DNA of 64,000 nucleotides, taken from contig CAZSFZ010000002.1 of the NCBI GenBank assembly GCA_964606385.1, forward strand, positions 107,711 through 171,710, written 5' to 3'. The stretch's first letter is position 1, and each line of letters starts with the position of its first letter. The DNA is from an uncultured bacterium. Its GTDB lineage: Bacteria; Omnitrophota; Omnitrophia; Omnitrophales; Aquincolibacteriaceae. Made by a program: the position numbers and the translations under genes. Below are positions 4,610-47,993 of this stretch, piece after piece. Under the pieces are notes generated by a model. That model saw only the letters and a list, made by a program, of their open reading frames with translations, had not been told where the DNA came from and made no database searches.

Positions 4610-6690
<2,081 letters not shown>

Positions 6691-27805: not shown

Positions 27806-28068
27806 TGGCCGCTTATTCGCTCAAGATCATCACACCTCAGGGAATCGCGTACGAGGGAAGCGTTTATCACGCGCTTGTCCCCGCGGAGAGCGGATTTGTG
27901 GGGGTCCTGGCCCATCACGCGCCCTATCTTTTATCTTCCAAAGGCGGGCGGATGGTCGTCAAAGAAAGTATCGGGCTGGAGAGGGATTTCGAGGTCGGCC
28001 CTGGATTTTTCGAGGTCCAGCACGACCAGGCTGTGTTCCTAACACAGACCTGTTCGGGCGGAAATTAA
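27805..28068 (+). CDS. atpC: F0F1 ATP synthase subunit epsilon, beta-sandwich domain only (87 aa)
   Basis: MAAYSLKIITPQGIAYEGSVYHALVPAESGFVGVLAHHAPYLL... N-terminal domain conserved; the C-terminal two-helix regulatory domain is absent; stop codon overlaps the stop of a convergent gene (TTAA). Confidence 0.85.
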
Positions 28069-28457
28069 AAAAAGAAAGCCATCACAAGAAGCGCCAAACC
28101 TACGGCGGCCGAACTCAGTACGACCGTGCGAAACGCGAGAGGCTCTGCCACAAGCGCCATCAGGAATTCCCGGGACTTCTTGTAATAGAAGACAAATGGC
28201 GCCGCTTTGGCCAGCCCGAGGCTCATGACAAGCGTCACCACAAAATTCTCCAGGCTCAAAGCCCTGAAAAATTCTCCCCAGGTCCATAAAACCAGCGCCA
28301 ACACGATCACTCCGGCCGCGAACATCCACCGGGGGCGGACCTCCGGATAAGTCCGCACGATAAAACGTTTCATGCTTTCCAAGCCCCAAACGGCCCAAAG
28401 GCCCCCCAAAACCATCCACACCCCAAGAACGATCCCGAGAATTTTAAAATAGGTCAT
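28065..28457 (-). CDS. Hypothetical 4-TM membrane protein
   Basis: 130 aa, hydrophobic segments; no recognised motif. Confidence 0.5.
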   Translation of the reverse strand: MTYFKILGIVLGVWMVLGGLWAVWGLESMKRFIVRTYPEVRPRWMFAAGVIVLALVLWTWGEFFRALSLENFVVTLVMSLGLAKAAPFVFYYKKSREFLMALVAEPLAFRTVVLSSAAVGLALLVMAFFF

Positions 28458-28520
28458 GAGACCTCCGTGAAACGGGGAACGTGGAACGGAAAACGAAAGC
28501 GTTCATCGTTCACTGTTCCC
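28458..28520. repeat. REP-like imperfect palindrome (GGGGAACG family)
   Basis: gaaacggggaacgtggaacggaaaacgaaagcgttcatcgttcactgttccccgcgcc; shares the core aaaacg..gcgttcatcgttc..gttccccgcg with the 26334 element. Confidence 0.5.
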
Positions 28521-28691
28521 CGCGCCTTTTTTAAGGCGCTTACGTCCCTCAATGATCAGCGCTACCCCCGCCAAAAAGAACGAGAGAAACCCAACGAGCG
28601 CGAAGATCGTGCTGGGCAAGGTCCCGACCCAGAACGCGCATAAGATCAAAACCAGGCCCGGTAAAAAATATTTCCAAAGGTAGTCCTTCAT
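28503..28691 (-). CDS. Hypothetical small 2-TM membrane protein (62 aa)
   Basis: ORF with two hydrophobic helices; its 3' end overlaps the REP-like element; weak call. Confidence 0.35.
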   Translation of the reverse strand: MKDYLWKYFLPGLVLILCAFWVGTLPSTIFALVGFLSFFLAGVALIIEGRKRLKKGAGNSER

Positions 28692-28804
28692 AGCGAAGTC
28701 ATTCTCGCAGAATCGCTCCCTAACCGCAAGCGGAAGGCTCCCGCCGCCTTGATTTTAGAGACATTCCCAAGTAGCATGTGTGCCCGTGAAAGGAGCGTGA
28801 CGGA

Positions 28805-29683
28805 ATGACCGAAGTGCTGCTGGATGCCTTGAAAGATACGCTGGCCATGGCCCCATGGCTTCTGGGGATCTATATCGCCCTCGAGGTCCTTGAGAACCGT
28901 TCGGAATCCTTTATCGGGGAAAAGATCAGCCACAGAATGGGAGCGGCGCCCTTGCTCGGAGCCCTTTTGGGGTGCATGCCGCAATGTGGATTTTCGGTGA
29001 TTGCCGCAACGCTCTACGCACGTAAATGTATTTCCATCGGAACGCTCCTGGCTGTTTTTATTTCCACCTCCGATGAAGCCATCCCCGTGATCCTGGCCCA
29101 GCAAGACAAGGCCCCCCTGGTCTTCTGGCTTCTCTTTGTGAAGGTGATCCTCGCGACGATCGCTGGTTATGCGGTTGACCTCCTCTTAAAAACAAAAAAG
29201 GAGAAAGAACTTCACGCCCCGCATGGCCCCGTAATCCCCCAGGGAGGGCATCGGTCCTGCGATTGCCACGCTCACGGCAGCAATATCCCCCAATGGAAAA
29301 CTTTTTTTCTATTCCCGCTAAAACACACGCTCAAAGTGCTGTTTTTTATTTTTCTGGTCTCGCTCCTGATCGGAGCCGTGATCTCAAGGTCCGGCGAGGA
29401 AGGACTGCACCGTTTGTTCCTGTCGGGAACTCCTTTTCAGCCGCTCGTCGCCGTATTGGTCGGCATGATCCCGAATTGCGCCGCGTCCGTGGCGGTAACC
29501 GAAGTTTACCTTAAAGGCGCGATCACTTTCGGCTCGGCTATCGCGGGCCTTTCCGCGGGAGCCGGATTGGGCCTCCTGGTGTTATGGAAAGAGAACAAGA
29601 ACGGGAAAGAGAATGCCCTGGTGACAGGACTCCTCATCCTGATCAGTCTGACCGCCGGCATCCTCCTTAATCTTTTTCTTTAA
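28805..29683 (+). CDS. Predicted permease with two internal repeats each carrying a conserved Cys (DUF318/ArsP-like family)
   Basis: 292 aa polytopic; repeat motifs GCMPQCGFSVIAATLY and GMIPNCAASVAVTEVY; candidate promoter TTGATT-17-TAGCAT about 50 nt upstream. Confidence 0.6.
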   Translation: MTEVLLDALKDTLAMAPWLLGIYIALEVLENRSESFIGEKISHRMGAAPLLGALLGCMPQCGFSVIAATLYARKCISIGTLLAVFISTSDEAIPVILAQQDKAPLVFWLLFVKVILATIAGYAVDLLLKTKKEKELHAPHGPVIPQGGHRSCDCHAHGSNIPQWKTFFLFPLKHTLKVLFFIFLVSLLIGAVISRSGEEGLHRLFLSGTPFQPLVAVLVGMIPNCAASVAVTEVYLKGAITFGSAIAGLSAGAGLGLLVLWKENKNGKENALVTGLLILISLTAGILLNLFL

Positions 29684-29707
29684 TTCCTTTCTCTCTTTTT
29701 CCGTTTA

Positions 29708-29790
29708 CACTGTTCTCTACTAAATTTTAGAGGTTAACAGTGTTATACCGCATACCCATAAATTGAATATTATGCGGTATTAAGCTACAA
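29708..29790 (+). repeat. Copy B of the duplicated two-hairpin element, in the 5' leader of the UPF0016 gene
   Basis: acACTGTTCTCTactaaATTTTAGaGGTTAACAGTgttaTACCGCATACCCataaattgaaTATTATGCGGTAt; runs into GGAGG-ATG of the next gene without a terminator. Confidence 0.6.
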
Positions 29791-29823
29791 TTCAGTCCGA
29801 TCATCATCTCCGAAGGAGGATTT

Positions 29824-30096
29824 ATGGATCTAAAGGTTTTTCTGGCAACTTTAAGCGCCATTTTTTTTGCCGAGCTCGCGGACAAAACACAGCTCGTGGG
29901 CCTCACGATGGCCTCAAAGACCGGGAAGCCCCTTTCCGTGTTCCTGGGCTCCCTCGCCGGTTACGCCCTGGTCACCCTGATCTCGGTCGTGATCGGGACC
30001 CTCTTGGCAAAATACGTGAAGCCTGATTTTATCCGTTATGGCGGCGCCACCGCGTTCGTCGTGATCGGGATCCTGATGTTCTTCAACAAGCTTTAA
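29824..30096 (+). CDS. UPF0016 (GDT1/TMEM165/MneA-like) single-repeat membrane protein, putative Mn2+/Ca2+:H+ antiporter family
   Basis: 90 aa, 3 TM, signature E-L-A-D-K-T (E-x-G-D-K/R-T/S variant) in the first helix (AELADKTQLV); strong SD GAAGGAGG. Confidence 0.7.
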   Translation: MDLKVFLATLSAIFFAELADKTQLVGLTMASKTGKPLSVFLGSLAGYALVTLISVVIGTLLAKYVKPDFIRYGGATAFVVIGILMFFNKL

Positions 30097-30118
30097 ACTT
30101 AAAAAAGGAGAGTGCCAT

Positions 30119-30202
30119 GGCCTGTAAAACCAAGAAAGCCAAGAAAACAAAGAAAAAAGCAAAAAAAGCAGCAAAGAAATCCTGTTGCTGCTGCCGTTAA
30201 CC
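30119..30202 (+). CDS. Small ORF (27 aa) MACKTKKAKKTKKKAKKAAKKSCCCCR: Lys-rich peptide ending in four consecutive Cys codons
   Basis: Excellent SD (AAGGAG, 6-nt spacer); followed 14 nt later by a 9-bp GC hairpin (30217-30238). Not in the ORF track because <60 aa. Confidence 0.45.
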
Positions 30203-30216
30203 CTTTCGCCGATCCT

Positions 30217-30238
30217 GGAGGCGGGTCTTCCCGCCTCC
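30217..30238 (+). promoter_or_regulatory. Stable stem-loop GGAGGCGGG-TCTT-CCCGCCTCC between the small ORF and rluA-like gene (no U-tract)
   Basis: Perfect 9-bp GC-rich stem read directly from sequence. Confidence 0.5.
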
Positions 30239-30267
30239 GGGATTGAAACGGGTTCTCTGCCGGCTCC

Positions 30268-31026
30268 ATGACACAGCCTTCCTTCACTTCACACCCGGTC
30301 CTCTTCGAGGATGCAGATCTGATCGTTATTGATAAGCCCGAGAGAATTCTCTCACATCCCAATCCGGGGTCTCCCAAAGCCTCCTGCGCGTTCGAGGGGA
30401 CTTACGACATGAATGAGCGGCGCTTTCAGACGCCGCAGGGGCCTTTATGGCTTATCCATCGCCTGGATCAGGACACTTCCGGCATCCTCCTGGCGGCCAA
30501 AAACAAGAAAAGCGCCGTGGCCTGCCGGGACGCCTTTGAAAAACGGTCCGTCAAAAAAAATTATCTCGCCCTCATTGCGAGGCGCCCCATGCCGCCTCAA
30601 GGCTTATGGCGTGATACCCTTATCGAAAAAAGAACGGGTGGTCATGTCCGGGCTATGATCGCGCGGTCAGGCGCTCCCAACGCTTTTTTGAATTACAAAA
30701 TGAAGGAATATTTTCCGAAATTCAATCTAGCCCTGCTTGAGATCGGTCTTTTAAGCGGAAAAACACATCAGATCCGGGCGCAAGCGGCTTTCCGGGGACA
30801 TTCGGTGGCGGGCGACCGGATCTACGGAAATTTCACGATCAATAAGGAGTTGCGTGAAGCCCTGGGGCTCCGCCGCCTGTTTCTTCACGCCTGGAGCCTC
30901 ATCCTGCCGCATCCCGCAAGCGGTAAAATGCTAGAAATCACATCTCCATTGCCTGAAGATCTTGAAGATTTTTTATTCAAGTGCAACGCGCAACGCACAA
31001 TGAAAAACGAAAAACGCGGACGTTGA
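30268..31026 (+). CDS. RluA-family pseudouridine synthase (no S4 domain)
   Basis: LIVIDKPERILSHP...LWLIHRLDQDTSGILLAAKN (catalytic HRLD), ...GKTHQIRAQ... Confidence 0.8.
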   Translation: MTQPSFTSHPVLFEDADLIVIDKPERILSHPNPGSPKASCAFEGTYDMNERRFQTPQGPLWLIHRLDQDTSGILLAAKNKKSAVACRDAFEKRSVKKNYLALIARRPMPPQGLWRDTLIEKRTGGHVRAMIARSGAPNAFLNYKMKEYFPKFNLALLEIGLLSGKTHQIRAQAAFRGHSVAGDRIYGNFTINKELREALGLRRLFLHAWSLILPHPASGKMLEITSPLPEDLEDFLFKCNAQRTMKNEKRGR

Positions 31027-31036
31027 ACTTAGAACG

Positions 31037-32698
31037 TTGCCCGTTGAGCGAGCTTTTATGAAAGTCCTGCTTTTACAGCCCCCGATCGAGGATTTCTACA
31101 ATACCGACATCCGTTTGCAGCCGATCGGCCTGGCTTACCTGAAAGCCGCCGCGGAAAAATACCTGCCCTGGGCCCGGATCACGGTCAGGGACTTTCACCA
31201 TGGCTGGAGCCGCAAAACGATCCCCCTTCCAAGAGAATTAGCTTATTTAAAAGATTATTATTCCAAGGACGACCAAAGCCCGTTCTCGACGTTCCATCAT
31301 TATTATCACTTTGGCGCGGATTTTGACCGCATCGCGAAGGAAGTCTCCCAAGAAAGGCCCGATCTGGTCGGCATCGCCTCCCTTTTCGCCCCCTATCACC
31401 GGGAAGTCCTGCGATGCGCGGAAGCGATCAAAAAACACTGCCGTGTCCCGATCCTTCTCGGGGGTTCCCAGGTTTCCGCCATGCCAGAAGCGATGCTGGC
31501 GCATCCCGCCGTGGATTTTGTGATCCAGGGGGAAGGCGAGAAACCGTTCGTGGAGCTTTTAAAGGCTCTTCAAAGAGGGAAAAGCTTCGAGAAGGCCCCC
31601 AATCTAGGCTATAAAAAAAACGGCCGTCTGATCCTGAATCCGCGGAAAGAGAATTTTCCGATCGAAGCGATCCCTTTTCCGGATCTTTCCGACCTGCCCC
31701 AACACCATTACCTTTTCGAAAAAAAGCCGCTGTGTTTTATCATTACGTCACGCGGTTGCCCCTATCGCTGCGCGTTCTGCTCCGTTCACAAGACTTTCGG
31801 GCATCAATGCCGCCGGCGCAGCGCGGCCCACATCCTTGCCGAGATCCGCGAGCGTTACGCTCAAGGTTATCGTGTCTTTGACTTTGAGGACGACAACCTT
31901 ACGTTTGACCGCCAGGAGATGACCGCGGTCTGCGAGGAATTGATCCGGGCTTTCCCTAAAAAAGATATCCAGTTGCTTGCCATGAACGGAGTTTGTTATT
32001 GGACGCTGGACCTGAAGATCCTGAAGCTGATGCGGCGGGCGGGATTCACTCATTTGAACCTTTCGCTGGTGAGCACGAATGCCGCGCTGCTCAAAAAAGT
32101 CCGAAGACCGGCTTTTCCTCAAAAATACCGTCGGGTCGTAAAACAGGCAACGGCGCTCGGATTCAAGGTAGTCGCTTATCAGATCCTGGGGCTTCCGGGC
32201 GACACGCTTCCTTCGATGGTCCAAACCCTTCTTTTCAATGCCCGGCTTCCGGTGCTTCTAGGCGCCTCCCCTTTTTATTTGATCCCTCATTCGCCGATCG
32301 CAAAACAATTTAACGCTCCTTCCGAAGCGGATGTCTTCAAAGCGAGGCTGACGGCCATGGCGGTCGAAACCCGGGATTTTCAGCGGGGAGACCTCTACAC
32401 GCTCCTGATCACGACCCGCATCCTGAATTTTTTGAAGGGGATCCCTCTCCAGACCCCCTCGACCTTCCTTTCCAGGGCGTTGGCCATCGCCTCAAAACAG
32501 GATCCTCGCTCCTCTTGGGGTGTTCGGATCCTGAAAAAGCTCCTGAAAGAAAAAAAATTGTACGCGGCAACCTCCCGGGGGCTTGAACCGCTTCCCCGCT
32601 TTAAGGCCGGGCTCTTCTTTCAATTGTGGCGAAAACTTGATAGGATTCAGACCCAGGAAGGAAAAACCATCAGAACCCGGGGAGGACGATCATGTTGA
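31037..32698 (+). CDS. B12-binding domain / radical SAM domain protein (class B radical SAM)
   Basis: N-terminal Rossmann-like cobalamin-binding region (KVLLLQPP...; likely true start at MKVLLL, 31058) and CxxxCxxC cluster TSRGCPYRCAFCSV. Confidence 0.8.
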   Translation: MPVERAFMKVLLLQPPIEDFYNTDIRLQPIGLAYLKAAAEKYLPWARITVRDFHHGWSRKTIPLPRELAYLKDYYSKDDQSPFSTFHHYYHFGADFDRIAKEVSQERPDLVGIASLFAPYHREVLRCAEAIKKHCRVPILLGGSQVSAMPEAMLAHPAVDFVIQGEGEKPFVELLKALQRGKSFEKAPNLGYKKNGRLILNPRKENFPIEAIPFPDLSDLPQHHYLFEKKPLCFIITSRGCPYRCAFCSVHKTFGHQCRRRSAAHILAEIRERYAQGYRVFDFEDDNLTFDRQEMTAVCEELIRAFPKKDIQLLAMNGVCYWTLDLKILKLMRRAGFTHLNLSLVSTNAALLKKVRRPAFPQKYRRVVKQATALGFKVVAYQILGLPGDTLPSMVQTLLFNARLPVLLGASPFYLIPHSPIAKQFNAPSEADVFKARLTAMAVETRDFQRGDLYTLLITTRILNFLKGIPLQTPSTFLSRALAIASKQDPRSSWGVRILKKLLKEKKLYAATSRGLEPLPRFKAGLFFQLWRKLDRIQTQEGKTIRTRGGRSC

Positions 32699-33159
32699 TC
32701 AAAATTCTTTTTTCTACGGCTTTATGCCTGTCCGCAGGAGCGATTGGATCTGCTTTTACGATCGCGGCGATCCCTGAGTGGTACGCGACGCTCCAGAAAC
32801 CTTCTTTCTCACCGCCCAACTGGATGTTCGGCCCGGTGTGGACGCTTCTCTATGTCCTGATGGCCGTGGCAGCAGCGATGGTGTGGCAAAAGGGGCTTCA
32901 AAATCCTCCCGTCCGGAAGGCTCTTACGGTCTTTTTGCTGCAACTGATCTTAAACACAGTCTGGTCCTACCTCTTCTTCGGGCTCCGTTCCCCGCTTTAC
33001 GGCCTCGTCGATATTTTGTTCCTTTGGGCCATGATCTTGGTTACAATAGCGCAATTTTCCAAGGTCTCGGTCCCGGCCGCCTTGCTCCTTATTCCCTATC
33101 TCTTATGGGTAACGTTCGCGACGGGCCTGAACTTGGGAATTTTGCTTTTGAACCCTTAG
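32692..33159 (+). CDS. tspO: TspO/MBR family tryptophan-rich sensory protein
   Basis: IPEWYATLQKPSFSPPNWMFGPVWTLLYVLMAVAA...WSYLFF; 7-nt overlap (ATGTTGA) with the rSAM gene indicates translational coupling. Confidence 0.85.
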   Translation: MLIKILFSTALCLSAGAIGSAFTIAAIPEWYATLQKPSFSPPNWMFGPVWTLLYVLMAVAAAMVWQKGLQNPPVRKALTVFLLQLILNTVWSYLFFGLRSPLYGLVDILFLWAMILVTIAQFSKVSVPAALLLIPYLLWVTFATGLNLGILLLNP

Positions 33160-33187
33160 ACAATCCGCGGAAAGGTTCTCCGGTCTC

Positions 33188-33517
33188 ATGCGAGCGATAG
33201 CTTTATTGGTGGTTTCCAACGTTTTTATGACGGCCGCCTGGTACGGCCATTTGAGGTTCAAGAACGCCTCGCTCTGGCTTGTCATTCTGATCAGCTGGCT
33301 GATCGCTTTTGTGGAATATTGTTTCCAGGTCCCCGCGAACCGGATCGGCTCAAACCAGTTCTCAACGGCTCAGCTGAAAACGATCCAGGAGATCATCACG
33401 CTCGTGGTTTTCTGCGGTTTTTCTGTTATTTATCTTAAGGAAGAATTAAAATGGAATTACCTGGTCGGCTTCGGATTCATGGTCCTGGCCGCCTTTTTTA
33501 TTTTTAAAAAATGGTGA
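33188..33517 (+). CDS. DUF486-family small 4-TM DMT-like membrane protein
   Basis: MRAIALLVVSNVFMTAAWYGHLRFK... matches the conserved DUF486 N-terminus (SN.FMT.AWYGHLK). Confidence 0.6.
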   Translation: MRAIALLVVSNVFMTAAWYGHLRFKNASLWLVILISWLIAFVEYCFQVPANRIGSNQFSTAQLKTIQEIITLVVFCGFSVIYLKEELKWNYLVGFGFMVLAAFFIFKKW

Positions 33518-33565
33518 GATAATACCTCCCCGGGATCGGTTTTCCCGTTACAACGAAAGGTTCTT

Positions 33566-34312
33566 ATGGCTCTCAAAGAAACGTATGAAAAACAGGGTGA
33601 ATTCCTCTTCAAGCACCGGAGCTATCTTCCGCTTCTTACGGCTCCTTTGGTGATCGCGGCGCTGCTGGACCCACAGTATTCTCATCCCTTGTTCAGCGGT
33701 TTTTCGGGAGGTCTCTGGAAAACGATCTGTATCTGCATTTCCTTCGCAGGCCTCATGGTGCGCTGCCTCGTGGCGGGTTATGTCCCGCTGGGAACTTCGG
33801 GACGCAATACGGAACGCCAGGTGGCGAACAGCCTGAATACCAAAGGCATGTATTCCCTGGTCCGGAACCCCCTTTACCTCGGGAATTTCCTGATCATTCT
33901 GGGACTTCTTCTTTTTATCCAGGTCTGGTGGTTCGCGCTCGCGGGGATCGCTATTTTCTGGATCTTTTATGAGCGCATTATTTTCACGGAAGAAGAATTC
34001 CTCCGCGGCAAATTCGGCGCTGCTTATGTGGACTGGACCCTGAAAACACCTGTCTTCATTCCGAAATGCTCGGGCTGGCAGAAACCGGAGCTTCCGTACG
34101 CGTGGAAAACAGTTCTGAAGCGCGAGCACTCGACCCAATTCGGCATGGTCTCGGCGCTGACCGTGCTCGGGATCGCCTCGGACCTCTTTACAACCCCCGA
34201 CCACAGGATCTCGAATTTCTGGTGGTTCTTCTGGGGAACTTCGCTTGTTGTTTATCTCGTGTTCCGCTTTTTGAAGAAAAAAACCAAGGTCCTCAACATC
34301 GAAGGCCGCTAA
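33566..34312 (+). CDS. Isoprenylcysteine carboxyl methyltransferase / phospholipid methyltransferase (ICMT/PEMT) family membrane methyltransferase
   Basis: GMYSLVRNPLYLGNFLIILG and EEEFLRGKFGAAY motifs typical of the family; multiple TM helices. Confidence 0.7.
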   Translation: MALKETYEKQGEFLFKHRSYLPLLTAPLVIAALLDPQYSHPLFSGFSGGLWKTICICISFAGLMVRCLVAGYVPLGTSGRNTERQVANSLNTKGMYSLVRNPLYLGNFLIILGLLLFIQVWWFALAGIAIFWIFYERIIFTEEEFLRGKFGAAYVDWTLKTPVFIPKCSGWQKPELPYAWKTVLKREHSTQFGMVSALTVLGIASDLFTTPDHRISNFWWFFWGTSLVVYLVFRFLKKKTKVLNIEGR

Positions 34313-34330
34313 CCTTTCACGGAGTGCTCT

Positions 34331-34897
34331 ATGAAAAAATCGCTCGGCACCAAAACCCTTCTTTTTCCCACTCCTGTTTTGATCGTTTGCTCCTATGATG
34401 CCCAAGGCGTTCCCAACGCGATGAACGTAGCCTGGGGCGGTATCGCCTGCTCCGAACCCCCCTGCGTGGCCGTTTCGGTGCGCGACCACCGCAAGACCTA
34501 CGAGAACATCCTGGCCAAAAAGGCTTTTACGGTGAACATTCCCTCCGAAAAATATATGAAGGAAGCGGATTATTTCGGGATCGTCTCCGGAAAAACCGAA
34601 GATAAATTCAAGGCGACGGGACTGACGCCCGTCAAAAGCGATCTTGTCGATGCCCCCTACATCAAGGAATTCCCTTTCGTATTGGAATGCGTCCTCCGGG
34701 AAACCCACAAGCTCGGCATCCACACGCAATTCATCGGGGAGATCAAGGATATCAAGGTGGAAGATGCCGCGCTCAATTCAAAAGGGTTCCCGGACCCCGA
34801 GAAAATGAAGGCCTTTATGTTCGACCCCGGCACGAGCTCTTATTACGCAACCGGGAAATTCCTCGGCCAGGCCTTTACCGTCGGCAAGAAGAAATAG
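34331..34897 (+). CDS. Flavin reductase-like FMN-binding domain protein
   Basis: LLFPTPVLIVCSYDAQGVPNAMNVAWGGIACSEPPCVAVSVR... matches the flavin-reductase fold family. Confidence 0.75.
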   Translation: MKKSLGTKTLLFPTPVLIVCSYDAQGVPNAMNVAWGGIACSEPPCVAVSVRDHRKTYENILAKKAFTVNIPSEKYMKEADYFGIVSGKTEDKFKATGLTPVKSDLVDAPYIKEFPFVLECVLRETHKLGIHTQFIGEIKDIKVEDAALNSKGFPDPEKMKAFMFDPGTSSYYATGKFLGQAFTVGKKK

Positions 34898-34899
34898 CC

Positions 34900-35274
34900 A
34901 TGACCAAGTGGCTGGGACTGGCGGCGGGCGGTCTTTTAGGGACTTTCGCGCGTTATTTCCTTGCCGGAGCCGTTCACCGATTTTGGGGGGCGACCTTTCC
35001 TTTCGGGACCCTGGTGGTCAATCTGACCGGTTGTTTCGCGATCGGCTTCCTCGCCGTGCTCGCGGAAGAAAAATTCCTCCTCGGGCCGACGGCACGCGTA
35101 TTCCTTATGATCGGTTTTTGCGGGGCCTTTACGACTTTTTCGACTTTCATCTTTGAAACCGCCAATCTCACCAAAGACGGCGAAACTCTTTCCGCGCTGA
35201 TGAATATCGTGCTCAGTGTGGTCTTGGGTTTTCTGGTCTTTCGCCTGGGTGTCATACTTGCAAGAGCGCTTTAA
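34900..35274 (+). CDS. crcB: Fluoride ion channel CrcB/FluC
   Basis: MTKWLGLAAGGLLGTFARYFL...FPFGTLVVNLTGCFAIGF...GFCGAFTTFSTF; start 2 nt after the flavin-reductase stop (the ORF track's longer 34687 start overlaps it). Confidence 0.88.
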   Translation: MTKWLGLAAGGLLGTFARYFLAGAVHRFWGATFPFGTLVVNLTGCFAIGFLAVLAEEKFLLGPTARVFLMIGFCGAFTTFSTFIFETANLTKDGETLSALMNIVLSVVLGFLVFRLGVILARAL

Positions 35275-35292
35275 TTCGAACCGGAGGCATTT

Positions 35293-35625
35293 ATGAAAAT
35301 ACCTGAAGACGGCAAGCTTTTAAGGATTTTTATCGGTGAAGCGGACAAATGGGAAGGCCGGCCGCTCTATGAAGCGATCGTGCTCCTGGCCAAAAAAGAA
35401 GGCCTGGCCGGCGCCACGGCCATGAAAGGTTTTATGGGCTTTGGTTGTAAAAGCCATCTGCACACTACCAAGATCCTTCGGCTTTCCGAAGACCTCCCGA
35501 TCGTGATCGAGATCGTAGATAGTGAGGAAAAGATCGCCAAGTTCCTCCCCCTTCTCAATCCGATGGTCAAAGAAGGGCTCATGACGCTTGAGAAGGCGAG
35601 TGTCCTTCTTTACCGCGCGGGATAA
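35293..35625 (+). CDS. DUF190 (PII-like) protein, the usual crcB partner
   Basis: 110 aa; LLRIFIGEADKWEGRPLYEAIVLLAKKEGLAGATAMKGFMGFG fits DUF190; known genomic association with crcB. Confidence 0.7.
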   Translation: MKIPEDGKLLRIFIGEADKWEGRPLYEAIVLLAKKEGLAGATAMKGFMGFGCKSHLHTTKILRLSEDLPIVIEIVDSEEKIAKFLPLLNPMVKEGLMTLEKASVLLYRAG

Positions 35626-35649
35626 GACGCTTATCCCCTCTTTTTTCCC

Positions 35650-36579
35650 ATGATTTTTCCGCACGCAGGAGCTCAAAAGTTTTTTTTGACAGCCGTTTTT
35701 ACAGGATGCCTCGGCACGATTTCGATCCTGCCGCTTTCGGCCGAAACGGGGAAAAGCCCGGTGTTTTATGTCCGTGCTGAAAAACCGGCTCCGGTACTGA
35801 ATACCGCTGATTTCAGTTCCACCTTTGGCGGAAAAGACGGAAAAACCCTGAAGCGCGACGCCCAGGGCCTTGTCCGTGAAGTGGAATTTATCGCGCTGCC
35901 CGGAACGGCCTTCATGGTCGAGGCCTCTTACGCCATGGACGGTTTCCGGATCTACCGGGTCCGCACCGCCGATTACCCTTCACCCCCGGAAGGACTCTTT
36001 GTGGACAGCCGTTTTGTTGCGACGGCTTCCCGCCCTTTTCCGCCTCGGCCCCAAAAAATACCTCCCCGGAAACAGATCCTGGACCGGATGGTAAGCCGCC
36101 AGGGCCTTCCCTATGTTTGGGGAGGCAATATCGCTGAAGGTGTCCCCGAGATTTTAAAGTTCTACCCTCCCGGCGGAAGGCTTTCGCCCGCTATCAAAAA
36201 TATGTGGATGCTCCGCGGGCTGGATTGCTCGGGACTTTTATACGAAGCCTCGGATGGCGCCACTCCGCGCAACACTTCAGACCTCACCCGTTTCGGAAAA
36301 CCCGTTCCGATCGCCGGGCTGGTTCCGTCTCAGATCGCGTCCAAACTTCAGCCTCTGGATCTGATCGTCTGGAAAGGGCATGTCATCATCGTGCTCGACC
36401 GGGAGCGCACGATCGAAAGCTGCATGGGGTGTTCGTCCAAAAGCGGCGTCACCATCAGAAAATTAGATGCCGTGCTCAAAGAGATCATGAAGACCCGTAC
36501 TCCCATGAACACCTATCCTGAAAAAAACGCTCCGGGCGAAAAACCTTTTGTTATCCGCCGCTGGCATCACGGAGCCTAG
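35650..36579 (+). CDS. NlpC/P60 (C40) family cell-wall peptidase, secreted/lipoprotein-like
   Basis: N-terminal signal-like segment; C-terminal catalytic region YVWGGN...LRGLDCSGLLYEA...GHVIIVL (Cys-His pattern). Confidence 0.7.
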   Translation: MIFPHAGAQKFFLTAVFTGCLGTISILPLSAETGKSPVFYVRAEKPAPVLNTADFSSTFGGKDGKTLKRDAQGLVREVEFIALPGTAFMVEASYAMDGFRIYRVRTADYPSPPEGLFVDSRFVATASRPFPPRPQKIPPRKQILDRMVSRQGLPYVWGGNIAEGVPEILKFYPPGGRLSPAIKNMWMLRGLDCSGLLYEASDGATPRNTSDLTRFGKPVPIAGLVPSQIASKLQPLDLIVWKGHVIIVLDRERTIESCMGCSSKSGVTIRKLDAVLKEIMKTRTPMNTYPEKNAPGEKPFVIRRWHHGA

Positions 36580-36660
36580 CATGCCGATTTCTGATTACCT
36601 CTAAGAGGCCCGTTTAGCGTATACTTACACAAACTATTTGGATGTGTTCCAGGGGACAAT

Positions 36661-38322
36661 ATGCTGCTTTTTATTTTTATTTCTGTTTTAGTCCTTTTCT
36701 ATGCCGCCTACCGCTTTTACGGAGCCCGTGTCCTTTCGAGGCTCTTCGGCATCAATGACCAGACCCCGACGCCCTCCCACGCCCAAAGCGACGGGGTGGA
36801 TTATGTCCCCACCAAAAACATCATTTTGTTCGGACATCATTTTTCTTCCATCGCCGGCGCGGGACCGATCGTGGGACCGATCATCGTCGGGGTCGCGTTC
36901 GGCTGGCTTCCCGCCCTGATCTGGATCGTCATCGGGTCTATTTTGATCGGTGGGCCCCATGACATGGGGTCGATTATCGCCTCGGTCAGGCATCAAGGAC
37001 GTTCTATCTCGGAGATCGCGCACCGCTACATTTCACCGCTTTCCTACAAACTCTTTTTGCTTTTCGTGTGGCTCGCGCTTATCTACATCCTGATCGTCTT
37101 CGCGGACCTGACCTCTACCTCTTTTGTCGAGGATGGCGCGACGGCCACTTCTTCATGTTTGTATATCTTTTTGGCCGTCTTGTTCGGCTTGGCTGTCTAT
37201 AAGTTTCGCATGAAAGTTTCTCACGGCTCATGGATCTTCGTGCCCCTTGTTTTTTTGGGAATTTATCTTGGGGTCCAGTTCCCCATGGAAAATGTTCCCG
37301 AGCTTTTTGGTTCCGCAAACCGGTTTTTCAACGTAGCGCTCATGATCTATGTTTTTTTCGCCTCCACATTGCCCGTCTGGCTTCTTCTGCAGCCCCGGGA
37401 TTACCTGAGCTCTTATCTTTTATATTTTTCCGTATTGGCCGGAGTCGTCGGTATCGCCCTGGGGGGATTCAGCGTTTCTTATCCCGCTTTTACTTCCTAT
37501 CGATCGGATTATTTGGGCCCGATGTTTCCGCTCGTCTTCGTGACCATTGCCTGCGGGGCGGTGTCGGGATTTCACGCGCTGGTCGCTTCAGGCACCACTT
37601 CGAAGCAGATCAACAAAGAAAGCGATGCCGTCAAGATCGGCTACGGCGGCATGCTTGTGGAAGGGGTGGTCGCTGTGATCGCCCTCATGACCGTCATGAT
37701 CCTGCTACCATCGCAGGGACTTTCGTCCCGCGACCCCCTTGATATTTACGCCGAAGGCATCGCGAAATTCCTCGCGATCTTCCACCTCCCGCTGCAGTTC
37801 GGGAAAACGTTCGGGCTGATGGCACTCGCGGCTTTCATCCTGACGACCCTCGATACGGCCACGAGGCTCGGCCGCTATGTTTTTCAGGAATTTTTTAACC
37901 TGACGGACGCCAAGCACCGGTGGACGGCTACGGCGGTAACCTTGATCTTTCCGGTCATCGGACTTTTTTCTACCCTAAGGGATCCCTTGTCCGGTAAGGT
38001 GCTTCCCGCCTGGAAAGTGATCTGGCCGCTTTTCGGCACCACCAACCAGCTCCTGGCGGGGCTTGTCTTGCTGGTCCTGTCGGTTTACCTGCTAAAAAAG
38101 CGCAAAAGCGTCCTCTACACCCTGATCCCTTGCATCTTCATGGTGATCATGAGCCTTTGGTCCCTGATGGAATTGATCACCCAATATCAATTTTCCATGA
38201 TCGGGTGGATCGCCATCGCGATCCTTGCCCTGACCATCGTCATTATTTTCGACTCCGTCATCACTATCAGAAACCATCTAAGGACAAAAGAGGCTCAAGC
38301 GTGCCCTTCTCCAGGCGCCTGA
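36661..38322 (+). CDS. cstA: Carbon starvation protein A (CstA family peptide/pyruvate transporter)
   Basis: 553 aa polytopic; N-terminal AAYRFYGARVLSRLFGINDQTPTP...HHFSSIAGAGPIVGPIIVGVAFGWLPALIW characteristic of CstA. Confidence 0.85.
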   Translation: MLLFIFISVLVLFYAAYRFYGARVLSRLFGINDQTPTPSHAQSDGVDYVPTKNIILFGHHFSSIAGAGPIVGPIIVGVAFGWLPALIWIVIGSILIGGPHDMGSIIASVRHQGRSISEIAHRYISPLSYKLFLLFVWLALIYILIVFADLTSTSFVEDGATATSSCLYIFLAVLFGLAVYKFRMKVSHGSWIFVPLVFLGIYLGVQFPMENVPELFGSANRFFNVALMIYVFFASTLPVWLLLQPRDYLSSYLLYFSVLAGVVGIALGGFSVSYPAFTSYRSDYLGPMFPLVFVTIACGAVSGFHALVASGTTSKQINKESDAVKIGYGGMLVEGVVAVIALMTVMILLPSQGLSSRDPLDIYAEGIAKFLAIFHLPLQFGKTFGLMALAAFILTTLDTATRLGRYVFQEFFNLTDAKHRWTATAVTLIFPVIGLFSTLRDPLSGKVLPAWKVIWPLFGTTNQLLAGLVLLVLSVYLLKKRKSVLYTLIPCIFMVIMSLWSLMELITQYQFSMIGWIAIAILALTIVIIFDSVITIRNHLRTKEAQACPSPGA

Positions 38323-38380
38323 GTCTTCTTCTGCGGTCGCGGATCCTGGGCTGCATTTAAAGATCCGGGAGGATAAGCTT

Positions 38381-38409
38381 TTGTCGTCGGGTCATTTCTA
38401 CAGTAGAAT
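38381..38409 (+). promoter_or_regulatory. Candidate promoter TTGTCG-17-TAGAAT for the ferritin-like/ZIP gene pair
   Basis: ttTTGTCGtcgggtcatttctacagTAGAATgg about 65 nt upstream of the start codon. Confidence 0.4.
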
Positions 38410-38476
38410 GGAGGCCTCTCAAGCAGCGGGCCTTTGAAATAGCAGTGGGTTAAAAAGCAAAAAAGGAGAAACAGTC

Positions 38477-38968
38477 ATGGGCACAAAAGGAAAAGAAATC
38501 GTCGGTGTGAACGTGGATGAATTGCTCAAGCTGATGAATAAGGCCTACGCGGATGAATGGCTTGCCTATTACCAGTACTGGGTCGGCGCCAAGGTCGCCG
38601 CGGGCCGGATGCGCGGGATCGTCGCGAAGGAACTCGAAGAGCACGCAGAAGAAGAACTGAAGCACGCCGGCATGCTGGTCGAACGCATGATCCAGCTCGG
38701 CGGAGCGCCGCTCCTCACACCGCAGGACATCCTCAAGGAAACGAATTGCGGGTATGACGCTCCTACGGACCCCTGCACCAAAAAACTCCTGGCGCAGAAT
38801 ATCAAGGGCGAGCAGTGCGCGATCGCGACCTATAAAAAGCTCTTCGACTTTGTGAAGGGCAAAGACCCGATCACGGAAAAGATCATCCTCGAGATCCTGG
38901 AAGATGAAGTGGAACACGAAGAAGATCTTGAGGCGATGCTCGCTGACATGAAGGCGCCGGTCGCTTAA
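38477..38968 (+). CDS. Ferritin-like diiron-carboxylate protein (bacterioferritin/Dps-like)
   Basis: Two ExxH motifs (EEELKHAGM, EDEVEHEED) in a four-helix-bundle-sized 163-aa protein; AAKEL...E pattern. Confidence 0.65.
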   Translation: MGTKGKEIVGVNVDELLKLMNKAYADEWLAYYQYWVGAKVAAGRMRGIVAKELEEHAEEELKHAGMLVERMIQLGGAPLLTPQDILKETNCGYDAPTDPCTKKLLAQNIKGEQCAIATYKKLFDFVKGKDPITEKIILEILEDEVEHEEDLEAMLADMKAPVA

Positions 38969-38983
38969 AAGCATGTAATGCCT

Positions 38984-39017
38984 CGTAGGACAGGTTTAAC
39001 CCTGTCCTACGAGGGAT
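38984..39017 (+). promoter_or_regulatory. Perfect 14-bp inverted repeat CCTCGTAGGACAGG-TTTAAC-CCTGTCCTACGAGG between ferritin-like and ZIP genes
   Basis: Read directly; no U-tract follows; lies in the 63-nt spacer before the ZIP gene start. Confidence 0.55.
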
Positions 39018-39031
39018 CCATCCCATCTTCT

Positions 39032-39847
39032 ATGACCGACTCCCTGACCCAATATCCCGTCATCCTTCAGGCCTTCTTGGCCGGGCTCTTCACCTGGAGC
39101 ATGACCGGTCTCGGCGCAGCGACGATCTTCATTTTTAAAAAAATCAACCAGAAGATCCTTGATGTCATGCTCGGTTTCGCGGCTGGCGTCATGATCGCCG
39201 CGAGTTTTTGGTCGCTCCTTACTCCCTCGATCGAAATGGCCCGTGACCAGGGCATGATCCCGTGGCTTCCGGCGCTTATCGGGTTTCTCCTGGGCGCTGC
39301 GTTCTTCCGCGTGATCGACAAGGTCCTCCCCCACCTTCACCCCCTCATGCCGGACGAAAAGATCGAGGGGATCAAAACCAAATTACCGAAGTGCACCCTG
39401 CTGGTGCTTGCGCTTACGATCCACAATATCCCTGAAGGCCTTGCGGTCGGCGTTGCGTTCGGGTCCACGGGGGCTGCCGCCAATCCCATGCCGATGATGG
39501 CCGCCCTGGCACTCGCAGTCGGGATCGGGATCCAGAATTTTCCGGAGGGACTCGCGGTTTCATTTCCGCTTCACCGGGACGGGTTTTCGAAGGGAAAAAG
39601 TTTTTGGTATGGGTGGCTCTCGGGCGCCGTAGAACCGGTCGCCGCGGTGATCGGCGCGGCGGTCGTGATGATGGTCCAGCCCCTGCTTCCCTACGCGCTC
39701 GCGTTCGCTGCCGGCGCCATGATCTTTGTGGTCGTGGAAGAAGTGATCCCGGAGTCCCAACAGAACGGGAATAGCGACCTCGCGACGACGGGCACCATCC
39801 TCGGCTTCGCTCTCATGATGCTGCTCGACGTCGCTTTCGGGAAATAA
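39032..39847 (+). CDS. zupT: ZIP-family divalent metal transporter (ZupT-like)
   Basis: Start taken at MTDSLTQYPVIL (the ORF track's longer start would translate the hairpin); HNIPEGLAVGVAF and QNFPEGLAVS motifs. Confidence 0.85.
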   Translation: MTDSLTQYPVILQAFLAGLFTWSMTGLGAATIFIFKKINQKILDVMLGFAAGVMIAASFWSLLTPSIEMARDQGMIPWLPALIGFLLGAAFFRVIDKVLPHLHPLMPDEKIEGIKTKLPKCTLLVLALTIHNIPEGLAVGVAFGSTGAAANPMPMMAALALAVGIGIQNFPEGLAVSFPLHRDGFSKGKSFWYGWLSGAVEPVAAVIGAAVVMMVQPLLPYALAFAAGAMIFVVVEEVIPESQQNGNSDLATTGTILGFALMMLLDVAFGK

Positions 39848-39866: not shown

Positions 39867-40499
39867 TTAGATTTTCGACGCAGACGATCGGTCTCCGGCA
39901 AGACGGTCCAGGCCGCGGCGAAGAGACTCACGGAGTGAATAGAGACAGCCGCAATAGCGTTGGCGGTAGATCTGCTGTTCTTTCACGATCTTGTCCATAA
40001 GTGCCTGTCCGCCGCCCGCCCGCCAATCCTGATCCCAATAGATCAATCCTGGAAAAGGCGCCGCCGCCTTCTCTCCGGCGCGGTTGACCTGCGCGAGGTC
40101 CTTCCATCGGGAAATGCCGAGGCTCGTCGCGAAGATCTTGAAGTGATGCCGGGAAGCATATTCCGCCGTTTTTCCGAGCCGCATCTCAAAACAAAGATCG
40201 CAACGCTCTCCCCGCTCGGGATCCTCTTCATGGCCTTTGATCGCTTCAAACCACCGGTCGATCTCATGGTCCGCATCGATAAAAGGGGTTTCTTTTTGAT
40301 GCGCAAAACGGATCACTTCTTGTTTGCGTTTTTCGTATTCCTCGCGGGGATAAATGTTGGGGTTATAAAAAAAGACCGTTAGCTCGATCTTGTTTTCGAT
40401 CAGTCGTTGGATGATCGAACAGGAGCAAGGTGCGCAGCAGCAGTGAAGCAGGACTCTTTTTTCGCTGTTGGGAACTTGGAGATCCAGAAGACCTGTCAT
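39867..40499 (-). CDS. queH: Epoxyqueuosine reductase QueH (DUF208)
   Basis: LLHCCCAPCSCSIIQRL... CCAPC signature plus the conserved YCGCLYS C-terminus. Confidence 0.8.
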   Translation of the reverse strand: MTGLLDLQVPNSEKRVLLHCCCAPCSCSIIQRLIENKIELTVFFYNPNIYPREEYEKRKQEVIRFAHQKETPFIDADHEIDRWFEAIKGHEEDPERGERCDLCFEMRLGKTAEYASRHHFKIFATSLGISRWKDLAQVNRAGEKAAAPFPGLIYWDQDWRAGGGQALMDKIVKEQQIYRQRYCGCLYSLRESLRRGLDRLAGDRSSASKI

Positions 40500-45786: not shown

Positions 45787-45820
45787 GATAAGAAAAAAGG
45801 AAAGAGGAAATTACTTCCTC
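45787..45820 (-). terminator. rpsO terminator/attenuator hairpin (GAGGAA-GUAAU-UUCCUC then UUUCCUUUUUUCUUAUC) allowing read-through into pnp
   Basis: Hairpin spans the rpsO stop codon, T-rich tract follows on the minus strand; analogous to the E. coli rpsO t1/pnp arrangement. Confidence 0.45.
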
Positions 45821-46080
45821 AGATCGAGGCGAGCGATGATCTGCTGGTATTTCTCGGGAGCCTCAGCCTGGAGGTGTTTCAGCAGCTTTTTACGGCGGCT
45901 GACCATCTTGATAAGCCCGTAGCGCGAATGGTGGTCTTTAACGTTCTTCTCAAAATGACCGGAAAGACCGTTGATGCGCTCGGTAAGGAGGGCTATCTGG
46001 ACCTCGGCGGACCCTGTGTCGTTCTTGCTGACCTTGTAGTCGGATATGATCTTTTTCTTTTTCGTCTTTGCTAATGCCAT
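45811..46080 (-). CDS. rpsO: 30S ribosomal protein S15
   Basis: 89 aa, MALAKTKKKKIISDYKVSKNDTGSAEVQIALLTERINGLSGHF... classic S15. Confidence 0.95.
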   Translation of the reverse strand: MALAKTKKKKIISDYKVSKNDTGSAEVQIALLTERINGLSGHFEKNVKDHHSRYGLIKMVSRRKKLLKHLQAEAPEKYQQIIARLDLRK

Positions 46081-46247: not shown

Positions 46248-47993
46248 TTAACGGCATGCAGAAACACCTGTCCACTGTTCGCAGGAAGTCCGCATGGCTT
46301 CGGGATCTTCATCGAAACGTAAGTCTTGACGGTTGAAAGGGTAGATCAAACATTCCACCAGACACGCATCAGGGAATGGCGCTTTAAAGTTATCTGTAAG
46401 CGCGCGTTTTCGATGATCTGGCGGTTCTGCTGGACCTTTAATATAATAATAATCCACATCAGGATAATGCTCGACACGATCGGCGCGGGATTGAAGCCAA
46501 GCCCTTATTTTGTTGCTTTTATCAGGATCCCCTATGGCCCTAGAAAATTTGATAACCAGCAGCCGACCAACCTCACTCAGGCGACCCAATGCCGACATAT
46601 CATCTAAACCATAAAGAATCACTTTGGAATTTTGATAAACATAATAATCATCCCCGTTGGAACGGTTTCGCATCACAACCAAAGGGGAAATATTAGGCTC
46701 ATCTAGATAGTACTGTATAGCATGTATGGCGGCCGGAGGCAGGATGACCGTGAAATCGACCGCATGGGGGTTCTTTTCAACAAAAGAAGCTATGCTGGGA
46801 AAATCCAGCGAGCTGTTCTGAATATAGTCCACAGGAACATAATAACGATCCGTCAAGCCTGCTCGAAAAAATCCATAAACACATAGTGGAATAAAAAAAA
46901 CGAATGCCCCAGCGAAACGCACAAACCTTGAAGACCAAGAGGCGATCCCCGCGGCCGCCATGAGAAGAAAAAAGGGATAGCCGAACAAGAAATAACGGGG
47001 CGCTAGACTCATTCGGAACATCCAAACGCAAAACAAACAAAGACTGACGGGAACGACAATCAAAATCAGAAGGAGCAACGCCTGAGATTGTTTTTTTTGA
47101 AAAAACGAAACCCATAAAAAACTTAAAATAAATACAAGCCCTCCTAGTGGGAAAAACCCATGTATGCCACCAAAGTGATCCTGAAAAGACTCCAAAATCT
47201 CCCAACCCTGAAGTCCCCAGCTGTCCACTCCGTTCTGTCTAAATTGCAAGGCGCTATTTAATCGTTTTAGGATTGGAATGATCGCGATCAGAATCGATGC
47301 CGCCGAAATGAAGTATTGGCTTATTAACTTTTTTTGTTTTCGAAAAAAAAGAAAAAGCCAGCAAGCGTGAGCGGCTAGGAAAAACAGGCTTGGAAAAAAC
47401 GCGTAGAAGGCAAGCGCTCCGGTCGCAGCATATAAAATCCAGTCCCTCGTTTTTAGGGTCTGAACGCTTCGGCATAAAAAAAAGCTGTTCGCGATTAGTA
47501 AAAAATAATAAAGAGGATAGTCTCTCGCGGATATTGCGTAATGGATATGCCAGACAGAGACTGCCATGAAAACGCTCGCAAGAAGCCCGGACCGCGCATC
47601 AAAAAGCAAAGCGCCTAAATAAAACAAAAAAAGGATGGAGGCGAGATCAAAAAAAAGCGATGGAAGAACCAGTAAGAACTCGCTACGGCCCAAATAAAGC
47701 ACTGCGTGGAGGATAAAGTATTTCAAGGGCCCTTGATCAGGACAGATGCCTTCGATGATCTTTGACACGGGGGCTGATGCCGCAGCGATCGTGATGCCTT
47801 CCGAAAGACCAAGTTCTTCTCGAGGCAATTTTTCGAAGAAGTGAAGGCGTAGAAAAAGCGCGAATAAGGCAATCGCGCTTAAACTCAGAATGAATCTTAC
47901 TTTTTTTGAAATAAAAGTTTCCTTCAAAAAAAGACCTTTTTGGGAGAATAATTTTTGGAATAAAAGCTTTTCGCCAATTTCACATCCGAACAA
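46248..47993 (-). CDS. GT-C fold membrane glycosyltransferase (GT39/GT83, ArnT/PMT-like), noticeably lower GC than neighbours
   Basis: 581 aa, about 10 TM helices in the N-terminal two-thirds then a soluble domain; the ORF's 5' end overlaps ribF by ~70 nt (true start probably internal/non-ATG). Confidence 0.6.
   Translation of the reverse strand: MFGCEIGEKLLFQKLFSQKGLFLKETFISKKVRFILSLSAIALFALFLRLHFFEKLPREELGLSEGITIAAASAPVSKIIEGICPDQGPLKYFILHAVLYLGRSEFLLVLPSLFFDLASILFLFYLGALLFDARSGLLASVFMAVSVWHIHYAISARDYPLYYFLLIANSFFLCRSVQTLKTRDWILYAATGALAFYAFFPSLFFLAAHACWLFLFFRKQKKLISQYFISAASILIAIIPILKRLNSALQFRQNGVDSWGLQGWEILESFQDHFGGIHGFFPLGGLVFILSFLWVSFFQKKQSQALLLLILIVVPVSLCLFCVWMFRMSLAPRYFLFGYPFFLLMAAAGIASWSSRFVRFAGAFVFFIPLCVYGFFRAGLTDRYYVPVDYIQNSSLDFPSIASFVEKNPHAVDFTVILPPAAIHAIQYYLDEPNISPLVVMRNRSNGDDYYVYQNSKVILYGLDDMSALGRLSEVGRLLVIKFSRAIGDPDKSNKIRAWLQSRADRVEHYPDVDYYYIKGPAEPPDHRKRALTDNFKAPFPDACLVECLIYPFNRQDLRFDEDPEAMRTSCEQWTGVSACR

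Follow-up and report, generated by a model that had tools for sequence, protein, structure and literature searches.

A compact gene block around a class B radical SAM gene in Candidatus Omnitrophota: probably an inherited backbone of separate modules

The gene block, its junctions and its packing

We have analysed a window of 64,000 nucleotides (nt) from an uncultured bacterium of the Omnitrophota (GenBank assembly GCA_964606385.1, contig CAZSFZ010000002.1, positions 107,711 to 171,710 of the forward strand), and within it a plus-strand block in which a class B (B12-binding) radical SAM gene is followed by genes for a TspO/MBR family protein, a small DUF486 membrane protein, a methyltransferase similar to LmtA of Leptospira and a flavoredoxin-type protein. 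An earlier note, made from the sequence alone, had suggested that these genes might form a membrane-lipid or tetrapyrrole modification module. With a probability that we put at about 0.7, the block is instead a compact, same-strand, conserved backbone of one Candidatus Omnitrophota lineage and has no dedicated pathway. The genes of the plus-strand run and the convergent gene that bounds it downstream are listed below by their positions in the window, with product lengths in amino acids (aa) where noted.

28805–29683, +, ArsP_2-type permease with multiple transmembrane segments (Pfam PF11449, 77 bits; NCBIfam NF037962, 244 bits, cut-off 100)
29824–30096, +, GDT1/UPF0016 cation transporter, single-domain, 90 aa (Pfam PF01169, 74 bits)
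30268–31026, +, RluA-family pseudouridine synthase, opening the tight core (Pfam PF00849, 82 bits; TIGR00005, 164 bits, below the cut-off of 193)
31058 (ATG)–32698, alternative TTG start at 31037, +, class B (B12-binding) radical SAM protein, 546 aa (Pfam B12-binding PF02310, 54.9 bits, cut-off 32.1; Radical_SAM PF04055, 69.2 bits, cut-off 29.5)
32692–33159, +, TspO/MBR family membrane protein (Pfam PF03073, 169 bits)
33188–33517, +, DUF486/DMT_6 small membrane protein, 109 aa (Pfam PF04342, 158 bits)
33566–34312, +, LmtA-like putative membrane O-methyltransferase with a PEMT/ICMT fold, 248 aa (TIGR04571, 232 bits; Pfam PEMT, 39.1 bits, cut-off 25; Pfam ICMT, 27.6 bits, cut-off 24)
34331–34897, +, flavoredoxin-type FMN-binding protein, Flavin_Reduct (PDB 2d5m, 206.7 bits; Pfam PF01613, 116.9 bits)
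34900–35274, +, CrcB fluoride channel (TIGR00494, 89.7 bits, cut-off 80.45)
35293–35625, +, DUF190 (COG1993) protein (Pfam PF02641, 137 bits)
35650–36579, +, 309-aa protein with an N-terminal hydrophobic segment (sub-threshold NlpC/P60 match, PF00877, 17.7 bits, cut-off 23)
36661–38322, +, CstA-family transporter (Pfam PF02554, 483 bits)
38477–38968, +, ferritin/Dps-like protein (Pfam Ferritin, 94 bits; NCBIfam Dps models, about 77 bits, below their cut-offs)
38978–39847, +, ZIP (ZupT-like) metal transporter, ending the plus-strand run (Pfam Zip, 87 bits; ZupT model, 150 bits, cut-off 252)
39867–40499, −, QueH, convergent, forming the downstream boundary (Pfam PF02677, 210 bits)

Published gene calls for an identical contig agree with the plus-strand open reading frames (ORFs). 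The strand and the families named by the earlier note hold, but twelve genes, not fourteen, lie within 28805–38322, and the larger count is reached only with the ferritin/Dps-like and ZIP genes beyond that point, up to 39847. The first gene had been labelled DUF318, which is ArsP_1, whereas it belongs to ArsP_2, a different Pfam family; NF037962 is the NCBIfam ‘arsenic efflux protein’ subfamily, the product has about seven hydrophobic segments, and the gene occupies the same position in relatives. Successive gaps in the fourteen-gene run are 140, 171, 31, −7, 28, 48, 18, 2, 18, 24, 81, 154 and 9 nt, that is, −7 to 171 nt with the largest values at 171 and 154 nt, and not the 2–140 nt given previously. 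Two junctions that had been singled out were recovered exactly as described when read from the sequence: the stop of the radical SAM gene and the start of tspO overlap by 7 nt (ATGTTGA, 32692–32698), and flavoredoxin and crcB genes are separated by 2 nt (TAG-cc-ATG, 34895–34902). The gap between the RluA and radical SAM genes is 31 nt, or 10 nt with the TTG start of the latter. A long minus-strand ORF (33548–34729, −) was considered but not accepted as a gene, since two well-supported plus-strand genes overlap it and its apparent conservation mirrors theirs.

About 94% of the window is coding; same-strand neighbours are separated by a median of 13 nt outside the block (n = 41) versus 28 nt inside it (n = 13), and the strand runs across the window comprise 20, 8, 2, 14, 11, 3 and 3 genes. 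The 20-gene minus-strand run (160–21364, −), which served as the compaction background, contains two ORFs (1349 and 1264 aa) that correspond in size to rpoB/rpoC and one that corresponds in size to EF-Tu, as well as tRNA-Trp and tRNA-Thr, with gaps that are mostly below 20 nt. Given this coding fraction, the tight gaps elsewhere and the 20-gene run, both the spacing of the block and its length on one strand represent the background state of the genome. Tight spacing, stop/start overlaps and a long same-strand run carry little information by themselves in such a genome, and the block is not packed beyond chance. It is to this packing, together with the 7-nt overlap between the radical SAM and TspO genes, that one could first appeal for reading the radical SAM enzyme, TspO, DUF486, the methyltransferase and the flavin reductase as one membrane-lipid or tetrapyrrole pathway, in which the flavoprotein would serve the radical SAM enzyme as electron donor, with TspO as the binding protein for the substrate or the product.

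A promoter-like site (29763–29791, TTGAAT-17-TACAAT) is located ahead of the GDT1 gene, and a pattern scan detected a terminator-like hairpin on the plus strand (35619–35648, GGGATAAG-acg-CTTATCCC then CTCTTTTTT), which spans the DUF190 stop and folds with −10.1 kcal/mol (z = −2.0). It is at this point that relatives turn to the convergent queH, and the hairpin is likely to be the end of the core transcript. Because the gaps range from −7 to 48 nt and the terminator-like hairpin follows DUF190, the core from RluA to DUF190 (30268–35625) is probably co-transcribed. From these signals we infer a first unit of the ArsP_2-type permease and GDT1 genes at the 5' end, set off by the 140- and 171-nt gaps, and a second that would consist of the tight core and close at the hairpin plus T-run; after it would come a variable four-gene insertion coding for the NlpC-like, CstA, ferritin/Dps-like and ZIP proteins. 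With Rfam, neither a fluoride nor an Mn riboswitch was found in the window, where 28000–39000 gave no match at the gathering score and none at E ≤ 1, or in seven related loci.

Gene order within the clade and neighbourhoods outside it

Thirteen related loci (L001, L002/L003, L006, L008, L009, L010, L016, L026, L028, L086, L127, L134 and L171; hereafter, the clade loci) were retrieved via homologues of the radical SAM protein, the methyltransferase and flavoredoxin, the closest radical SAM homologues (76–78% identity and below) being proteins from metagenome-assembled genomes (MAGs) of Candidatus Omnitrophota. Twelve of these loci carry the radical SAM gene, with 62–79% identity of its product, and the order in the clade is RluA–radical SAM–TspO–DedA(VTT)–DUF486–methyltransferase–flavoredoxin–CrcB–DUF190, then, on the opposite strand, queH, ftsK, dut, pnp and rpsO. 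RluA stands directly before the radical SAM gene wherever a clade locus covers the site and contains the latter; in L002, L003 and L086 its stop overlaps the radical SAM start by 4 nt. The genes for ArsP_2 and GDT1 and the atp operon lie upstream of the array in several clade loci, and QueH adjoins it in all of them, directly after DUF190 in the relatives. The adjacency of the radical SAM and TspO genes, whose conservation the earlier note had proposed to examine, is thus kept in close relatives, but the flanks (the atp operon on one side and queH–ftsK–dut–pnp–rpsO on the other) are as well conserved as the block. With flanking housekeeping genes equally collinear, the order within the block reflects the general collinearity of the clade chromosome. 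The word ‘accessory’ does not suit a block that is part of the conserved backbone and has the atp operon and ftsK–pnp–rpsO as its flanks; the variable insertion is confined to the four genes that separate DUF190 from queH (NlpC-like, CstA, ferritin and ZIP), the first three being absent from the site in ten compared clade loci and ZIP occurring there in L008 only.

Two further details of these loci were recorded. Between the atp operon and the array the window has two minus-strand ORFs of 130 aa (28065–28457, −) and 62 aa (28503–28691, −), which were assigned to no family and are conserved in position in several clade relatives. In L006 (12097–14057) TspO and DedA are separated by approximately 2 kb of additional sequence, and the gaps before crcB and DUF190 are larger.

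Individual members of the block are lost separately. TspO is missing in L009 and L026, DUF486 in L006, L016 and L028, and CrcB together with DUF190 in L026 and L028; the DedA/VTT gene, which precedes DUF486 in most relatives, is missing in the window and in L010. No clade locus with the radical SAM gene lacks the LmtA-like or the flavoredoxin gene. L171, from a sister lineage (flavoredoxin 73% identical), has the same backbone and retains RluA, TspO, DedA, DUF486, flavoredoxin and CrcB without the radical SAM gene, the methyltransferase and DUF190, and the place of the radical SAM gene between RluA and TspO is taken by an unrelated ORF (4797–5384; 195 aa) for which Pfam gave no hit. Taken together, L171 and the losses of TspO mean that TspO, DUF486 and flavoredoxin are independent of the radical SAM enzyme and that the latter is independent of TspO; joint gain and loss of the members, as expected of a pathway operon, was not seen.

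A scan of species-representative genomes identified full-length homologues of the radical SAM protein (35–61% identity) in other phyla, the hosts outside the clade being Leptospira, Thermodesulfobacteriota/Deltaproteobacteria, Nitrospirota, Acidobacteriota, Verrucomicrobiia, Bdellovibrionales and other Omnitrophota. Co-occurrence was evaluated here by gene neighbourhoods. None of the 24 non-clade radical SAM loci had cluster genes nearby, within up to 10 kb as the contig allowed, and RluA adjoined the radical SAM gene in 0/24, so the adjacency seen in close relatives does not extend beyond the clade. All-against-all clustering of the flanking ORFs of these loci revealed no common neighbour beyond a radical SAM/SPASM gene, found downstream in three of them (L004, L011 and L012), and the immediate same-strand neighbours recognised by Pfam were unrelated (FecR, TetR, FadL, cytidylyltransferase, DNA glycosylase, SDH protease, PCC and HTH). 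Homologues with 54% identity are present in Leptospira weilii and L. borgpetersenii (L018, 10001–11695, and L031, 10001–11704); both genes flanking the Leptospira ortholog are on the opposite strand and unrelated (GNAT and histidine kinase).

Similar results were obtained for the methyltransferase, for which 83 loci were compared (3 from the clade and 80 non-clade metagenome loci), 48 of them at least 4 kb long, including 45 non-clade ones. Flavoredoxin, a radical SAM ortholog, TspO or DUF486 were found near it in the three clade loci only and in 0/80 non-clade loci (45 of at least 4 kb), and clustering over the 80 metagenome loci gave no widespread neighbour of the LmtA-like family. Flavoredoxin homologues with 64–67% identity occurred in two non-clade loci, in unrelated contexts.

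A single pathway of the five genes would find support in their order in the 12 clade loci and in the constant presence of the radical SAM, methyltransferase and flavoredoxin genes there. It could also draw on an LmtA-like homologue located in an alternative-heme cluster (L088, described below) and on the presence of BchE among the weak matches of the radical SAM protein (97 bits). However, the losses of TspO and DUF486 left the rest of the block intact, TspO, DUF486 and flavoredoxin persist in L171 without the radical SAM gene or the methyltransferase, and the partners are found neither at the 24 radical SAM loci nor at the methyltransferase loci outside the clade. None of the other loci shows the heme context of L088, the BchE, HpnJ and HpnR models score 73–102 bits against cut-offs of 481–650, and the order of the flanking housekeeping genes is conserved to the same degree. 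Moreover, the radical SAM and flavin-reductase-like proteins have no hydrophobic segment, at odds with the description of the core set as membrane or membrane-associated proteins. We consider such a pathway quite unlikely, and the suggested lipid or tetrapyrrole module is weakened by the TspO and DUF486 losses, L171, the 0/24 radical SAM loci and the equally conserved flanks.

Adjacency of partners across distant lineages, beyond that given by general gene order, is what distinguishes a pathway operon, and it was not found. Independent losses, the lack of partners outside the clade and the equal collinearity of the flanks leave the inference of one module unsupported, and the fact that flavoredoxin, the LmtA-like enzyme and CrcB–DUF190 are separately described families counts towards separate modules. 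Annotating the radical SAM–TspO–methyltransferase–flavoprotein set as a lipid or tetrapyrrole pathway would be a false lead, which is hereby averted.

Members of the block and alternatives that link some of them

The radical SAM protein has the B12-binding domain and the radical SAM domain above their Pfam cut-offs, and a CPYRCAFC cluster motif (CxxxCxxC) with three invariant Cys, features that place it among the class B radical SAM enzymes. The classification by profile models that had been proposed (BchE-like versus HpnP/HpnR-like) assigns it to neither, since it fits no curated family and remains far below every NCBIfam cut-off (bits/cut-off: Sden_1168 110/575, HpnJ 102/578, BchE 97/481, HpnR 73/650 and PhpK 82/600). 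Its AlphaFold model (pLDDT 74) superposes on generic class B enzymes only (TsrM, MgmA, CysS, TokK, AprD4 and OxsB), at 15–19% identity, and a structural search with the conserved C-terminal domain (about 100 aa, pLDDT 89) returned no match. The protein is probably a cobalamin-dependent methylase or another radical enzyme. Membership in a widespread class B family of approximately 545 aa, with homologues in Leptospira, makes it accessible to genetic study in a cultivable genus.

The position of RluA immediately upstream, with the 4-nt overlap in three clade loci, would also fit a translationally coupled RNA-modification pair, in which radical methylation would act on an RNA that has first been pseudouridylated. 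We regard this as extremely improbable: L171 keeps RluA next to the unrelated ORF that replaces the radical SAM gene, the two genes are never adjacent in the 24 non-clade loci, and the C-terminal domain offers no structural match. To our knowledge, RNA methylases of the class B radical SAM type have not been described.

The methyltransferase aligns over its entire length (residues 1–248) with positions 1–252 of the LmtA_Leptospira model TIGR04571 (E = 9e-69), although at 232 bits it does not reach the cut-off of 325; both the PEMT and ICMT families of Pfam are detected above their cut-offs, and the ICMT chains in PDB match at about 26 bits. LmtA of Leptospira interrogans is cited as the lipid A 1-phosphate O-methyltransferase (Hinckley et al. 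2005; PMC4402001). The likeliest target of the window enzyme would be a phosphate or carboxylate group of an envelope lipid, e.g. lipid A 1-phosphate. The 248-aa family is sharply conserved, with 45–66% identity in other lineages, and LmtA-like methyltransferases are common well beyond Leptospira.

Several neighbourhoods of this family deserve description. On the Nitrospirae contig L087 (8001–10099) no intergenic gap separates the LmtA-like gene from a gene for a VTT(DedA)–PAP2 fusion, and the opposite strand carries PAP2 and Metallophos genes immediately upstream; such a neighbourhood might serve lipid-phosphate remodelling. A Metallophos gene adjoins the LmtA-like gene in L147 and L153 as well, and DedA-like genes lie within about 2 kb of it in L093 and L122. 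In a deltaproteobacterial MAG (L088, 741–11306) the LmtA-like gene is found within a tetrapyrrole/alternative-heme cluster comprising GluTR, PBG deaminase, TP_methylase–HEM4, two radical SAM proteins, ALAD and an NirD/L-like regulator, and on another contig it has an ABC-F gene on one side and an AsmA-like gene on the other. The contexts seen in L088 (heme) and L087 (DedA–PAP2) are single cases among the LmtA-like loci.

These surroundings bear on the possibility that (DedA)–DUF486–LmtA-like genes form an envelope-lipid sub-module with the other genes as bystanders, a DedA-type lipid-phosphate flippase and the DMT protein handling lipid A or polyprenyl phosphate and the LmtA-like enzyme methylating the same lipid. 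In addition to the end-to-end match with the Leptospira model, the fusion and the PAP2 and Metallophos neighbours in L087, the Metallophos genes in three loci and the nearby DedA-like genes in two, such a sub-module could invoke the DedA protein of the relatives, which scores 197 bits with the DedA family and matches, weakly, the models for the undecaprenyl-phosphate transporter UptA. The set is, however, incomplete in several members of the clade, including the window itself, where DedA is absent as it is in L010, and the three loci without DUF486; L171 has DedA–DUF486 and no methyltransferase. Furthermore, a DedA-like gene is found near the LmtA-like gene in only about 4 of the 45 non-clade loci of at least 4 kb, DedA paralogs are common, and the activity of a protein below the LmtA cut-off is a predicted one. 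We find this sub-module doubtful.

Another conceivable link is that the radical SAM and LmtA-like enzymes share an envelope-lipid substrate, e.g. lipid A, in a new cobalamin-dependent modification. Both genes are present together in the clade loci that have the radical SAM gene, absent together from L171, and represented in Leptospira, but they are never neighbours outside the clade. We rate this proposal very unlikely; if true, it would mean a lipid modification common to the Omnitrophota clade and Leptospira.

Some of the above observations do weigh against reading the block as a backbone of separate modules. The order in the clade is stable down to 62% identity of the radical SAM protein, with overlaps of RluA/radical SAM and radical SAM/TspO genes, which makes co-expression of the core likely. 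Co-expressed genes are often functionally related. The radical SAM, LmtA-like and flavoredoxin genes occur in every clade locus that has the first, the first two are jointly missing from L171 (a single case), and a DedA-like–PAP2 fusion directly follows the LmtA-like gene in L087; a small envelope-lipid sub-module accordingly keeps a low but real probability. Finally, the radical SAM family by our homologue scan, and LmtA as cited (PMC4402001), are both present in Leptospira.

Among the remaining members, TspO is covered by PF03073 over residues 2–144 of 145, has approximately five hydrophobic helices and belongs to the TspO/MBR family; solved bacterial TspO chains in PDB match it at 77–82 bits. 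A literature search found no paper tying TspO to a B12 radical SAM enzyme, and the two top literature matches for ‘DUF486’ were rejected as actually concerning DUF4861 and DUF4867. The product of 34331–34897 matches flavoredoxin (PDB 2d5m_A) over residues 1–186 of 190 and is a member of that family. The protein, formerly designated a flavin reductase, has the Flavin_Reduct domain and is a soluble flavoredoxin homologue with no predicted transmembrane segment. None of the comparisons made gave a sign that it reduces a radical SAM cluster.

CrcB scores above the TIGR00494 equivalog cut-off and is a member of the CrcB/Fluc family, which is annotated as a fluoride efflux transporter and has DUF190 (COG1993) as its usual partner. 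The pair CrcB–DUF190 stands alone in L066, a deltaproteobacterial MAG, and by family membership constitutes a separate module. The 309-aa protein had been termed NlpC/P60; the match is a weak one, below the Pfam cut-off and with no NCBIfam hit, but its sequence shows a DCSG motif with a His further downstream, and it is plausibly a distant NlpC/P60 member.

Two other ORFs of the window are worth mentioning. A multi-transmembrane 581-aa ORF with a PMT_2 domain (ArnT/GT39-like glycosyltransferase; 46248–47993, −) lies between rpsO (45811–46080) and ribF (47924–48970) in a stretch with a GC content of 44% versus about 55%; given this low GC and the adjacency of rpsO and ribF in L086, it looks like an inserted gene, possibly acquired horizontally. 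A 2152-aa ORF (57436–63894, −) shows good codon usage and no Pfam domain above threshold.

Comparison with known systems

The radical SAM protein shares with the class B family (TsrM, TokK, CysS, MgmA, OxsB, BchE and HpnJ/HpnR) the layout of an N-terminal B12-binding domain followed by the radical SAM domain, but differs from the curated class B equivalogs in scoring 4- to 9-fold under their cut-offs. The methyltransferase resembles LmtA of Leptospira in its end-to-end alignment and in the PEMT/ICMT membrane fold, whereas its score is below the curated cut-off, its substrate is putative, and its 248-aa family is widespread in Omnitrophota, Nitrospirae and deltaproteobacterial MAGs without fixed neighbours. 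TspO is similar in profile and helices to the tetrapyrrole-binding TspO/MBR proteins of Rhodobacter and Bacillus; in contrast to these, it is below the alphaproteobacterial equivalog cut-off (123 versus 180), has no photosynthesis or porphyrin gene context and is absent from some clade members.

The flavoredoxin-type protein is like Desulfovibrio flavoredoxin (2d5m) in being a full-length Flavin_Reduct split barrel of about 190 aa without a membrane segment; the Desulfovibrio protein is cited for a role in thiosulfate reduction (Broco et al. 2005; PMC4243691). As in known CrcB (Fluc) modules with DUF190, the latter comes right after CrcB, and the two are lost together in two clade members; unlike in the fluoride-riboswitch-controlled crcB units, no fluoride riboswitch was detected at the window crcB, which starts 2 nt after the flavoredoxin stop.

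From these likenesses we infer the biochemical role of each core gene separately: RluA would act as a pseudouridine synthase, with a role of its own, TspO as a tetrapyrrole-binding membrane protein, DUF486 as a small membrane protein of the DMT type and flavoredoxin as a soluble FMN electron carrier. The core genes would work independently, and their proximity and stop/start overlaps would result from genome compaction and inherited order. As a whole, the block therefore compares best with the ‘uber-operons’, strings of genes of mixed function in compact bacterial genomes: unrelated genes are placed tightly or overlapping on one strand, their order is inherited together with housekeeping neighbours, and single genes come and go. 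It differs from them only in its gene set, which is specific to the Omnitrophota clade.

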